A stretch of DNA of 64,000 nucleotides from the NCBI GenBank assembly GCA_963850905.1, contig CAWKMU010000003.1:992001-1056000 (forward strand), written 5' to 3'. A program made the position numbers and the translations under genes. This document shows positions 55,890 through 62,365 of the stretch, piece by piece (position 1 is the stretch's first letter; every line of letters begins with the position of its first letter). The DNA comes from an uncultured Gemmatimonadales bacterium (GTDB lineage Bacteria > Gemmatimonadota > Gemmatimonadetes > Gemmatimonadales > Gemmatimonadaceae). The notes below the pieces were generated by a model, which saw nothing but the letters and a program-made list of their open reading frames with translations, was not told the DNA's origin and searched no databases.

Positions 55890-55919
55890 TTGGTCAAAAG
55901 ACGACGACCTGCGACAATC

Positions 55920-56060
55920 GGGCGGACTGAAGCCCGCCCCTACATGTCAGTATGGACGGTGACTCTCCGGAGCGCCGCGGCGACGATTGCAGTGCCGGTC
56001 GGCGAATCCGGATTTGACGCTGCCCGCAGCAACATGTAGGGGCGGCCTTCAGGCCGCCCG
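55920..56060. repeat. REPIN-like doublet, copy 5
   Basis: Same REPs and spacer as copies 2 and 4; (GTCACCC)n arm at about 56086-56117. Confidence 0.85.
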
Positions 56061-56095
56061 GTGGTTGTTCGTCGCCGTGGTTGGTCCGTCACCCA

Positions 56096-58731: not shown

Positions 58732-59430
58732 ATGGCTGACGTCGCGCTGAAGCGAGCGACTTCCCAGGTACCGCCCACAGAACGCTTTCGTGAGGAGGCT
58801 GCGCCTCGGACTACTACGTCCGGCGGCGGGGCTCATCGGCTACGGGAGTCACTGCGGACGCAAGACGATGCCGGGGTGGTCGAAGCGTTTCTGGGGGGCG
58901 AGGAGCGGGCGTTCGAAGAGTTGGTTGAGCGGTATCAGGTCCGGTTGCTCAACTTCGTGTATCGGACGATCGGCGATCGCGAACGGGCCGAAGATCTGGT
59001 GCAGGAGGTGTTCATCCGGGTGTACCGCCACCTCCATCGGTTCGACCGGTCGAAGAAGTTCTCGACCTGGGTCTATACCATCGCGTCGAACCTGGCCAAG
59101 AACGAGTTGCGGAATCGGTCGCGGAATCCTTTGGTGTTGTTCCAGGCCATCAAGAAGACGTGGGACGACGACGAGCGGCCGGTCCAGTTCGAGGACCACG
59201 GTTCGCGCCCCGACGACTTGTATCGGAAGCGGCACCTGCGCGAGTTGGTCGAGGCCTCGGTCGCGCGCCTGCCGGCGCATCACCGCCAAGTCTTCGTGCT
59301 CCGCGAGCTCGAGGGCAAGTCGTACGAGGAAATCGCCGAGATCACCGCCTGTAACCTCGGCACCGTGAAATCGCGGCTCAATCGGGCACGGACGTCGTTT
59401 GCGGAGATTATTGGGCCGGGGCTGAAGTAA
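58732..59430 (+). CDS. ECF sigma-70 factor
   Basis: AEDLVQEVF, FSTWVYTIASN, SYEEIAEI..GTVKSRLNRAR. Confidence 0.93.
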   Translation: MADVALKRATSQVPPTERFREEAAPRTTTSGGGAHRLRESLRTQDDAGVVEAFLGGEERAFEELVERYQVRLLNFVYRTIGDRERAEDLVQEVFIRVYRHLHRFDRSKKFSTWVYTIASNLAKNELRNRSRNPLVLFQAIKKTWDDDERPVQFEDHGSRPDDLYRKRHLRELVEASVARLPAHHRQVFVLRELEGKSYEEIAEITACNLGTVKSRLNRARTSFAEIIGPGLK

Positions 59431-59439
59431 GGCCGAACT

Positions 59440-59553
59440 GCGGGTCTGGGGTTTGGGGTTTGGGAAGACAAACTGCGGGGGCTGGTTGCGGCGCGTCGCA
59501 ACCGGCCCTTCGTGTTTGTTCCCCAGACCCCAAACCCTAAACCCCAGACCCGC
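59440..59553. repeat. Palindromic element with (GGGGTYT)n arms
   Basis: Core GACAAAC...GTTTGTTC. Confidence 0.85.
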
Positions 59554-59652
59554 CGTTCAGGCTTCAAGCCAAAGCCCCGCCCGCCCCCTGGAACTAGCCC
59601 TAGCATCCCGTGTATTCTCCCGCGTCACTACCTCAGGTGCTCTGGGCACGCT

Positions 59653-60312
59653 ATGGACTGCAGGACCTTTCGGGAGAACCACGCGCAATTCGTAGACGGG
59701 CTCGTTGCTGACGAGGAGCTCGTAACGATGCAGCGACATGTTGCGGAGTGCATCGCGTGCGCGACCCATGATGCGACGATTCGACGCGCGCTGTTGTTGT
59801 TCCGCAATATGCCGGGCATCGAGCCGTCGGCCGAATTCGCAGGTCGTCTCCAAGTGCGTTTGCGCGCAGAGCGAAGGGAGCAGCGTGCCCGCGCACAGAC
59901 GGCGGGATACGGCGGCCGTGGCGCTCGCACCTTTGCGGTCGCGGGGGCAGGCTTGCTCGCCGCTGGCCTTGCCGTCTTCGCGGTGTTGGGGGTAGGCGGC
60001 CACATGTCGGCGTCGGTGTCGACTCTGTCCGCTGCGCCTATGTTGACGTTCTCGCCAGTGGTGGTTGCCGCGGCCGCGCCCCGTTCGCGGCCCGAGCGCG
60101 TCAGGACGATTGTCGGCGCGGGCGCGGCGACCCTCCTGCGCGATGCTGGCGTGCCTCGTCTCGACCCCAGGGATCCGTGGAGTTCCCTCACCGATCCTGC
60201 GTTCGCCGCCTCCGTCTCAGCTGGCATGCCCGTGTGGCCCGCCGCGGCCCTGGCAGCGCACGCGCCAACCGCGTTGGGGTCTCCGATGAAGCTGACGAAT
60301 TTGGAGAGATAG
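59653..60312 (+). CDS. Zinc-binding anti-sigma factor (ZAS) with TM helix
   Basis: MDC...HVAECIAC (HxxxCxxC), one TM; follows the ECF sigma gene. Confidence 0.8.
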   Translation: MDCRTFRENHAQFVDGLVADEELVTMQRHVAECIACATHDATIRRALLLFRNMPGIEPSAEFAGRLQVRLRAERREQRARAQTAGYGGRGARTFAVAGAGLLAAGLAVFAVLGVGGHMSASVSTLSAAPMLTFSPVVVAAAAPRSRPERVRTIVGAGAATLLRDAGVPRLDPRDPWSSLTDPAFAASVSAGMPVWPAAALAAHAPTALGSPMKLTNLER

Positions 60313-60320
60313 AAAAGGAC

Positions 60321-60448
60321 GGACGTTAGACGCTGGACGTTAGACGCTGGACGTTAGACGCTAGCACAAACCTCGAGGGCCAGTCGCGGTGCAAGCGGCT
60401 GGCCCTCGATTTGTTTTCAAGCGTCCAGCGTCTAACGTCCAGCGTCTA
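60321..60448. repeat. Palindromic element with (TRGACGY)n arms
   Basis: About 6 heptamers on the left and 4 inverted units on the right. Confidence 0.85.
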
Positions 60449-60455
60449 CTCCCCT

Positions 60456-60701
60456 ATGTCCCCCTCCAACGACTGGGTTTCCCCGAGCGACATCGCCGCC
60501 TACACCTACTGCGCGCGCGCGTACTGGCTCGAGCGGGTGCGGCACTTCGACCGCACGGGCGCGGGCACTGAGCGGCTCGAGATCGGCCAATCGCAGCACC
60601 AATTGCATGGCCGCCGGGTGGCAGCCCAACGTTGGCTGGTCCGACTGGCAATCGTGCTGTTGGTCGGGGCAGCGGGCCTGATGTGGGTGGCGAGTCGGTA
60701 G
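60456..60701 (+). CDS. Small protein matching the N-terminal module of Cas4-like nucleases, with a C-terminal TM helix
   Basis: VSPSDIAAYTYCARAYWL and GQSQH motifs; hydrophobic LAIVLLVGAAGLMWV. Confidence 0.7.
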   Translation: MSPSNDWVSPSDIAAYTYCARAYWLERVRHFDRTGAGTERLEIGQSQHQLHGRRVAAQRWLVRLAIVLLVGAAGLMWVASR

Positions 60702-61243
60702 CGGCGAGACACCGAGTCGTGATCCTGCTCGCGATTGGTCTGGTGGTGGTGGCGCTCGCGCTCCTCGTCGGGGCGCGTCGCATTGGCACGGCGACTGGCG
60801 TTCGCACGGGCGCGCCCATCGTGGCGTCGGATGTTGGCGTAGAGCCGTCGGTTCTGCTCGAGGCTCCCATATCCCGGCTTCGAGGGCGCCCAGATTACCT
60901 GCTCCGCGAGCGCGCCCGCGGACGGATCTACCCGGTCGAGGTCAAGCCGACCCGTGAGTCTGCGACGCTGTTCGAGGCGGATCTGCTGCAGATCGGGGCG
61001 TACATGCTCCTGACTGAATCGACGTATGGGCGCGAGTTTGCCGGCTATGGCCTTGTCCGCTATCGATCCGCGGAGTTCCGCGTCGCGCTCACTCGAGACC
61101 TCAGGTGGCGATGTCTCGCAGCTGCGGAAGGTGTCCGTGCGGCGCGGCGAGCGGCCGAGGTGCATCGCAGCCACCGGATTCCCGCGCGGTGCGCCGGCTG
61201 TGCAGTGCGTGGACGCTGTGCGGAGGAACTCCGGGCCTTGTAG
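60683..61243 (+). CDS. Cas4/RecB-like PD-(D/E)xK nuclease core with an N-terminal TM helix
   Basis: GRPDY, PVEVK, QIGAY, C-terminal CAGCAVRGRC; start at GTG 60683 or 60719. Confidence 0.82.
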   Translation: MGGESVAARHRVVILLAIGLVVVALALLVGARRIGTATGVRTGAPIVASDVGVEPSVLLEAPISRLRGRPDYLLRERARGRIYPVEVKPTRESATLFEADLLQIGAYMLLTESTYGREFAGYGLVRYRSAEFRVALTRDLRWRCLAAAEGVRAARRAAEVHRSHRIPARCAGCAVRGRCAEELRAL

Positions 61244-61252
61244 TTTCCTTTC

Positions 61253-62365
61253 ATGCCCACTGCCAGCGAGCACGTCTTCCGGAAGGCCGTGACGGCTCGG
61301 TCGTTTGCGGCGGTGTACTATCTCCATGGGGACGATGATTTCCGGAAGGAAGACGCCATGTCGGCAGCGCTCGCAGCGGCGGTAGAGCCAGGCTGTCGCG
61401 CGTTTGACCTCGACGTGCGCCGTGCTCAGGATCTCGACGCAGAGTCGATCGTCGCGCTACTCGAGACGCCACCACTCGCCGGATCGCGGCGAGCCGTGGC
61501 CATCCGGGATGTGCACGCGTTGAAAAAGGATGCTCGCAAGGAGCTCGAGCGGTATCTGGACCGTCCGGCAATGGATTTGCTGCTCCTGCTCGTCGGAGTC
61601 GGGGGCGAGAAAGTCGACCGGACGTTGAGCGAGCGCACCGTGGCCGTGGAATTCCCAGTCCTCACCGGCGATCGCCTACCCAGATGGATCGCGCACCGCG
61701 CTAACGAGCTCGGCGTGCCAATCACGCCAGAGGCCGCCACACTGCTGCACGAAGCGGTCGGGACTGATCTGGGCGCACTCGCCTCCGAACTGGACAAGCT
61801 CGCCAGCTACGCGCGCGGCACTGCCGCCGCCACCCGCGAGCCAGGTCAGGGGGGACCAGTCCAGATCGATGACGCAGCAGTGACCGCGGTCGTGGGTGTC
61901 CGCCGCGGCGAGACGTCGGGTGACTTGCTCGACCGCGTGGCCGAGCGCGATGCCAAGGGCGCGCTTGCGCTGGTAGAGCCGGTGCTGGCGCAACCGAAAT
62001 CGAGCGCCGTCGGCACGGTCATGGCCTTGGCCACGCAGACGCTCGCGCTTGCGTGGGGCCGCGCGAAGCGCGAACAAGGTGTGTCACGCAACCGTCTGGC
62101 ACCAGAGTTTTTTGCGCTGCTCAAGGAAACCGGCGCGAGCCCGATGCGCCCCTGGGGTGAAGCGGTCGCAACCTGGGTGCGTGCTGTCGATCTCTGGACG
62201 CCGCAAGCGCTGGACCACGCGCTGGACGCGTTGACACTCGCCGATACCGCGTTGAAGGAGACGCGTATGACAAGCGACGAACAGGCGATCGCCGCCCTCG
62301 TGCTTGCGATGTGCGTCGATGTCGAGCACTCCGCCGCGGTGCGTCACGAGGGAGCGGCCGCGTGA
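61253..62365 (+). CDS. holA: DNA polymerase III delta subunit
   Basis: VYYLHGDDDF, TPPL...RAVAIRD, LPRWI, VGTDLGALASELDKL, AD.ALK. Confidence 0.88.
   Translation: MPTASEHVFRKAVTARSFAAVYYLHGDDDFRKEDAMSAALAAAVEPGCRAFDLDVRRAQDLDAESIVALLETPPLAGSRRAVAIRDVHALKKDARKELERYLDRPAMDLLLLLVGVGGEKVDRTLSERTVAVEFPVLTGDRLPRWIAHRANELGVPITPEAATLLHEAVGTDLGALASELDKLASYARGTAAATREPGQGGPVQIDDAAVTAVVGVRRGETSGDLLDRVAERDAKGALALVEPVLAQPKSSAVGTVMALATQTLALAWGRAKREQGVSRNRLAPEFFALLKETGASPMRPWGEAVATWVRAVDLWTPQALDHALDALTLADTALKETRMTSDEQAIAALVLAMCVDVEHSAAVRHEGAAA

Follow-up and report, generated by a model that had tools for sequence, protein, structure and literature searches.

Two adjacent genes in the window, the 64,000-nucleotide stretch of an uncultured Gemmatimonadales genome that was analyzed, very probably encode a membrane-tethered, two-subunit nuclease of the Cas4 family. 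We tentatively propose that it serves as an accessory housekeeping DNase that would trim or clear single-stranded or branched DNA near the membrane, independently of ComEC and CRISPR, a role to which we give somewhat less than an even chance; for architecture and role taken as one statement, the balance lies just short of even.

The first gene, ORF A (60456-60701, plus strand, 81 aa), corresponds to the N-terminal half of the Cas4 fold, and the second, ORF B (60719-61243, plus strand, 174 aa), to the C-terminal half; they lie in different frames, with a spacing of 17 nt from the TAG of ORF A. A close relative backs the GTG start of ORF B at 60719, since its reading frame is closed by a stop two codons before that position. 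ORF A carries the N-terminal motif SDIAAYTYCAR, which includes Cys19, a GxxxH motif (GQSQH, Gly44-His48), and a C-terminal hydrophobic helix (aa 61-79). ORF B begins with a hydrophobic helix (aa 1-19) and continues with the PD-(D/E)xK core (GRPD with Asp59, EVK with Glu74 and Lys76), the QxxxY motif (QIGAY), and CxxCx5C (Cys158/161/167). The profile TIGR00372, which has 180 positions, matched ORF A over model positions 2-42 (E 0.0066, 16.3 bits) and ORF B over 52-178 (E 3.8e-12, 46.4 bits), and PF12705 matched them over 2-44 (E 0.0038) and 114-246 (E 1.6e-6), respectively. The motif positions and the ends of both profile matches bear out the original prediction that the Cas4 motifs are divided between two neighboring ORFs in different frames, the 81-aa ORF carrying the first Cys motif and GxxxH before a transmembrane helix and the second ORF carrying its helix ahead of PD, EVK, QxxxY, and CxxCx5C. 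Both halves scored below the curated TIGR00372 cut-off of 65 bits and hence do not qualify as equivalogs of CRISPR-associated Cas4; in place of the single soluble chain of that enzyme, there are two ORFs, each with one hydrophobic helix. The closest named relatives were from Gemmatimonadales (64-86% identity).

The split is a conserved two-gene design and not an error. Contigs of two of the four sequencing runs bridged the junction without a gap, one spanning 60453-60812 with 1 other letter and one spanning 60359-60783 with 2, and both runs belong to one study that is possibly the window's own source. In the third run, the stop codon was covered with no difference, the overhang being too short to count as bridging, and in the fourth it lay outside the coverage. 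An indel fusing the ORFs, the artifact against which the original prediction had warned, was thus not seen in the bridging contigs; on its own, the run evidence for an intact junction is weak. ORF B matches were identified in 12 of 61 related genomes, including all 10 of its own genus (counting the window's genome, G000), and all 12 carried an A-like ORF that lies upstream of B and ends in a stop, so that the small ORF is kept beside the homologues of B, as expected of a two-gene arrangement. Three loci of the nearest named relatives, which may duplicate these genomes, were left out of the count. In genome G021, one of the two loci has A truncated where the contig stops, and the B gene of G007 is frameshifted.

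The arrangement was also examined in metagenome loci. For scanning loci, the broad alignment A1 proved too diverse, and the narrower, Anaerolineae-like alignment A2 was chosen, from which the best 80 of 584 confirmed loci were taken, a set biased to split forms. Among these 80 loci, A was a separate ORF adjoining B in 49, and a whole unrelated gene sat between A and B in 15; the product of that gene is an L,D-transpeptidase (PF03734) in 8 loci and HEAT-like in the other 7. A further 15 lacked A and had at most 1.1 kb of upstream sequence, and one (L027) had no A-half despite 2.1 kb upstream. No fused form occurred in the 80 loci, a count to be read with the bias of the set. The frame offsets of the 49 adjacent pairs were 12/24/13 (12 of 49 in frame), and the stop codons of A were TGA in 29, TAG in 10, and TAA in 10; these varying offsets and stops exclude a conserved recoding signal. 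Among 8000 candidates for each half, at least 3576 stand-alone A-like clusters were counted versus at least 3534 B-like clusters, and most of the named stand-alone halves were from Chloroflexota. The HEAT-like protein found between the halves is unannotated, measures approximately 210 aa (e.g., L066:4310-4966), and is tandemly duplicated in L057.

Conservation was examined in alignments of 63 A rows and 88 B rows. Cys19, Gly44, and His48 of ORF A were invariant (63/63), as were D38, G56, P58, D59, K76, Y95, H152, and the three cysteines of ORF B (88/88), where E74 and Q91 were conserved at 90% or above; Asp38 and His152 are family-specific invariants. The catalytic motifs of the Cas4 family (PD-(D/E)xK and QxxxY) are therefore all present in ORF B, and the set of one N-terminal and three C-terminal cysteines is complete only across both genes, in 63/63 and 88/88 rows. 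In four pairwise comparisons with relatives for each gene, dN/dS was 0.12-0.28 for ORF A and 0.14-0.34 for ORF B, and both genes are under purifying selection.

Sequencing error, frameshifting, and read-through were rejected, and the broader reading that the locus really makes one protein (by any of these routes or as a pseudogene), or that B works alone with A as a relic, is scarcely credible: the existence of fused homologues, the 12 in-frame pairs, and locus L027 are outweighed by the gap-free contigs, the 12 of 12 split relatives, the 15 of 80 loci in which a whole gene separates the halves, the three offsets and three stop codons elsewhere, the abundance of stand-alone A-like clusters, and the purifying selection on A with its invariant Cys and His.

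Single-chain counterparts occur in nature. A search of 50%-identity representatives yielded 609 matches (E up to 0.001), and 23 of the 383 proteins examined contained both halves in one chain. The number of helices between the first Cys and the PD motif was two in 16 of these, four in 5, eight in 1, and one in 1 (a threshold call). An even helix number, present in 22 of the 23, would keep both soluble parts on one side of the membrane, and exactly one helix was found in 304 of 308 stand-alone C-halves. A separate pattern count added three further eight-helix and two further four-helix forms. Fused forms with names came from Gemmatimonadota and Methanofollis. The fallback offered with the original prediction, one chain with a transmembrane hairpin, is thus real in natural homologues elsewhere but is not the state of this locus. 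On a catalytic-core tree of 52 rows, of which 18 were labelled fused (one without a detected N-motif), the fused label needed seven changes, five of them forced by well-supported branches. This pattern suggests repeated fusion or fission; with an arbitrary root and with rows labelled split that may include mis-called starts, we claim no direction.

The AlphaFold2 model of the fused homologue P0013 (pLDDT 87.7) placed residues 4-270 on residues 5-200 of the Cas4 chain 7mi4_A with Z 18.6 and an rmsd of 2.9 Å over 182 residues, leaving a helical hairpin at approximately 53-122 unaligned, and points to a Cas4/RecB-like fold. The GxxxH motif aligned with the matching motif in 8d3l (weakly, E 0.17) and in 4r5q. 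The window pair itself was modeled as a complex with the 4Fe-4S cluster included and scored 0.87, versus 0.03 for the best of three controls; of the solved pairs, 116 of 157 attained the mark for this score, as did 2 of 215 mismatched ones, rates that hold only roughly here. Contact agreement between runs was at least 95% and partner pLDDT at least 75. The modeled contacts set B 1-23 against A 54-79, helix on helix, and B 157-169 against A 5-29, and A 33-53, which includes His48, was absent from the confident contacts. The predicted heterodimer is accordingly borne out at the level of the model, in which the part of A around Cys19 meets the three-Cys region of B. The score may reflect likeness to solved Cas4 structures, which can by itself carry two halves of a split gene over the mark, and the modeled fold and interface therefore indicate compatibility and not binding.

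A charge bias flanked both helices. Of the A-halves, 61 of 62 had more Lys and Arg residues before the helix than after it (mean 3.5 vs 0.7); of the B-halves, 86 of 88 had the excess after the helix (3.2 vs 0.1). By the positive-inside rule, the K/R-rich flank is cytoplasmic, and the bias therefore agrees with the earlier claim that the soluble parts of A and B both face the cytoplasm. The topology would be N-in/C-out for A and N-out/C-in for B.

On the basis of these features, we propose that A and B, each translated on its own, form a single Cas4-family nuclease of the solo (non-CRISPR) type. Each subunit would enter the cytoplasmic membrane by its one helix, the two helices would pack together, and the soluble parts would come together as a single Cas4 fold on the cytoplasmic side. 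Cys19 of A and Cys158/161/167 of B would hold a [4Fe-4S] cluster. To the metal site, B would contribute Asp59, Glu74, and Lys76, and A probably His48. Neither product would then be a complete enzyme, the cluster being shared and the metal site probably so. Cluster binding, metal binding, and DNase activity are predicted from the motifs. His48 may be the equivalent of His62 of SSO0001, which binds metal with Asp99 and Glu113 according to PMC12501428. The same paper describes nuclease activity of the Methanosarcina mazei solo-Cas4 without a need for its cysteines, and the shared cluster therefore need not be a functional requirement. The substrates of the proposed enzyme would lie near the membrane and could be repair or replication by-products or newly entered DNA.

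The pair resembles CRISPR-associated Cas4 (TIGR00372, PF01930; 7mi4 Cas4-Cas1, 8d3l type I-C, 4ic1 SSO0001, 4r5q) in its fold (Z 18.6 and 18.0 for the fused homologue), PD-(D/E)xK core, QxxxY motif, one-plus-three cysteines, and GxxxH helix. It differs in comprising two genes with two membrane helices within the fold, in scoring below the TIGR00372 cut-off, and in its surroundings. No cas1 was found in 104 pair loci (595 kb, some overlapping), versus 20 of 22 canonical Cas4 control loci, and a crude scan found array-like repeats in none of the 104 pair loci and in 1 of the 22 controls. Searches of the window's own genome, 82% complete, found neither Cas1 nor a further Cas4, and the crude scan yielded no CRISPR-like array. 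Within these limits, the absence of CRISPR context that had been noted for the window holds for cas1 and arrays, and the results support the conclusion that the pair is unrelated to CRISPR. Like solo-Cas4 as treated in PMC5704561 and PMC12501428, it is a Cas4-family gene outside CRISPR-cas loci, whereas the M. mazei solo-Cas4 is described in the latter as an oligomeric single-gene enzyme.

The nuclease domains of AddB/AdnAB, Dna2, Exo5, and MGME1 (PF12705 and kin) function in DNA end processing in repair. The pair shares their fold class and differs in being split, membrane anchored, and free of a helicase fusion. AddAB, RecB, and AdnAB have a fused or paired SF1 helicase, whereas ORF B has no helicase domain, no such helicase was among the recurring neighbors, and a DinG/YoaA-type gene accompanies the pair only on B. 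subtilis plasmids. Replacement of AddAB/AdnAB by the pair was unsupported, long PF12705 genes being patchy in carriers and non-carriers alike. ACE1 (9iab, 9iac; PMC12094033), reported to be an Argonaute-associated, non-CRISPR Cas4-family nuclease acting against invading DNA, also matched the fused homologue model (Z 9.4); it is a single chain with an Argonaute partner, whereas Argonaute was absent among the recurring neighbors of the pair loci.

The immediate neighbors named in the original prediction were confirmed by profile matches. An ECF sigma factor gene and an anti-sigma-like gene (58732-60312, plus strand) precede the pair, the anti-sigma-like protein matching zf-HC2 below the Pfam cut-off, and holA (DNA polymerase III delta; 61253-62365, plus strand) starts 9 nt past the ORF B stop and is possibly co-transcribed with it. 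The block of sigma, anti-sigma, holA, and SPOR genes was free of the pair in seven of seven loci from other genera. The pair was therefore inserted at this site in this genus only, into an older block, and these neighbors are uninformative on function; a functional link to the ECF sigma/anti-sigma genes or to holA was rejected on the same seven loci. The pairs of three other genera occupy a different conserved site and belong to a different subclade. One genome, G021, holds two pairs from different subclades (C13 and C98; L016, L013).

Between the anti-sigma gene and ORF A, tandem 14-nt (2x7) units form an inverted repeat that encloses a hairpin (60321-60448). This terminator-like hairpin (60373-60409) suggests that transcripts of the sigma operon do not simply continue into the pair. 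A second intergenic inverted repeat of this kind, with arms of 7-nt tandem units flanking a hairpin, is at 59435-59558. The own genome contained 58 heptamer-dimer inverted pairs, with several unit sequences, versus 0 and 0 in two shuffles; these repeats form a REP-like element family in this lineage. Elsewhere in the window, a 56-nt imperfect inverted repeat (77% complementary) lies between two glycosyltransferase genes at 55892-56087.

Across the phylum, a full-length match was present in 7 of 401 genomes; the other 26 matching genomes gave only partial matches, mostly ordinary Cas4 or Cas4-Cas1. Among 83 clustered loci, the genes recurring near Chloroflexota-like pairs were NAD kinase (34), a recN-like gene (22), and ssb (13). 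Together with the plasmid neighbors described below, a YoaA/DinG-type helicase in B. subtilis and umuD plus a Y-family polymerase in Paludisphaera, these genes hint at a DNA-processing role, and stable chromosomal sites within housekeeping blocks hint at a housekeeping one. Most of the repair-type neighbors belong to a single group of related loci and may reflect synteny by descent, neighbors are lineage-dependent with no universal partner, and the patchy distribution fits an accessory or a mobile function as well. We rank accessory DNA processing or repair first, ahead of degradation of entering DNA, RNA processing with Trax, and ComEC-linked uptake, in that order.

Plasmid copies were found with a Chloroflexota-like query, which matched 32 plasmid records; ORF B of the window as the query gave no plasmid match. 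Six records were opened, and many of the 26 others are annotated cas4. Two B. subtilis plasmids carry intact pairs with the YoaA/DinG-type helicase gene two genes upstream and hfq after the pair; WP_213380651.1 and WP_213380650.1 are the accessions of such a plasmid-borne A and B. Intact pairs on Paludisphaera and Singulisphaera plasmids adjoin DNA methyltransferase genes, and umuD and the Y-family polymerase gene are near the Paludisphaera pair. Planctomyces has a broken copy behind IS701. The A-half on the Marinobacter plasmid NZ_CP152381.1 (L152:2475-3408) ends in CFI-box-CTERM (NF041770, E 3.2e-16) and not in a helix; this variant suggests that CFI-box-CTERM may be a membrane-anchoring signal. 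The phage collections searched contained no match, and viral contigs gave one weak partial match.

The same architecture could instead act as an inner-face nuclease that degrades entering phage or conjugative DNA, its plasmid copies excluding competitors. This reading draws on the patchy, apparently horizontal pattern of acquisition (7/401), the occurrence at two different insertion sites and in two subclades of a single family, the intact plasmid pairs, beside methyltransferase genes in two planctomycetes, a tethering that suits the site of entry, and a carrier genus without comEC. Against it, no defense genes were among the recurring neighbors of the clustered loci, and the insertion sites are housekeeping blocks and not defense islands. 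A PADLOC 2.0 scan, with a library of 2023 and covering the pair and two neighbors, yielded nothing beyond Cas4 models and a weak match to the DruK nuclease domain (E 2e-4), and the purifying selection on both genes also weighs against it. We regard this reading as unlikely. Its bolder version, in which the Fe-S cluster and active site would form only when both proteins meet in the bilayer, assembly being the on-switch of a CRISPR-independent nuclease that cuts DNA at entry (phage injection, conjugation), has spread horizontally among bacteria and archaea, and is borne on plasmids to exclude rivals, is somewhat less likely still.

Alternatively, the pair could be an RNA-processing nuclease working with a Trax/C3PO-type RNase at the membrane. 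Among the scoreable metagenome loci, which were Chloroflexota-like, 34 of 51 had a homologue of AfTrax (E 7.6e-26) immediately upstream of the A-half, and hfq follows the pair on the B. subtilis plasmids. By contrast, a search without a positive control found Trax in none of 61 Gemmatimonadales genomes, 12 of them pair carriers, and Trax was on this count rejected as an obligatory partner. The top structural matches of fused P0013 were Cas4, Dna2, Exo5, AdnAB, and MGME1, all of which are DNases, and an RNA-processing role is improbable. The Trax/C3PO homologue itself (L023:3444-4076 and 33 other metagenome loci) is highly conserved, and Pfam barely detects it (E 7e-4).

That the pair processes DNA in natural transformation, beside the ComEC channel, is highly improbable, and for this genus such a role is largely refuted. 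Membrane anchoring, the co-occurrence of pair and comEC in four genomes, and the retention of dprA in the five genus genomes tested would suit it. However, ComEC was found in none of the 10 genomes of the genus, all of which carry the pair, versus 49 of 51 others (including the unpublished G016), a result that weakens the DNA-uptake option of the original prediction. The syntenic comEC site in the own genome (G000:C3:2890857-2891264) has shrunk to a gap of 407 bp that contains no N and lies within a 3.65-Mb contig, between genes that we take from their motifs to be miaB and fbp, and tblastn of this genome with ComEC queries from seven relatives gave no match. ComEC was also not among the recurring neighbors of the clustered loci. 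With the pair present without comEC in the genus and both present in four genomes, the pair neither needs nor excludes ComEC. An in-place swap of comEC for the pair was rejected because comEC lies at another site, and coupling of comEC loss to pair gain was unsupported: four genomes have both, G026 has neither, and the genus counts as one event. The genus is apparently non-transformable, and comEC is near-universal in the rest of its order.

In the openly accessible literature searched, we found no description of a split, membrane-anchored Cas4 pair. The words "split" and "transmembrane" are absent from the main texts of PMC5704561 and PMC12501428, and no account of the split pair was found in PMC13621843, PMC4158269, or PMC10354927. 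Hudaiberdiev et al. (2017, PMC5704561) report solo-Cas4 as monophyletic in many Chloroflexi, list one for Anaerolinea thermophila, and treat solo-Cas4 function as an open question. The Chloroflexi solo-Cas4 of that report may be the C-half of a split pair.

These findings suggest that many proteins annotated as CRISPR-associated Cas4 are membrane-anchored half-enzymes whose other half is an unannotated 80-aa gene. Clustered at 90% identity, they number at least 3534, a figure that includes some ordinary Cas4. Expressed by itself, the annotated gene would yield a protein lacking one ligand of the cluster and probably one of the metal. If this is confirmed, the Fe-S cluster of the nuclease would bridge two chains, each anchored in the membrane, and versions with 1+1, 2, 4, and 8 helices would exist in nature. 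The intact copies on plasmids of B. subtilis, a laboratory species, offer a tractable test system. One of these plasmids, NZ_OX419568.1 (L153), is 64 kb long and typed non-mobilizable, yet has Flp/Tad pilus genes; it also encodes ssb, a toprim protein, hfq, and two Rap proteins.
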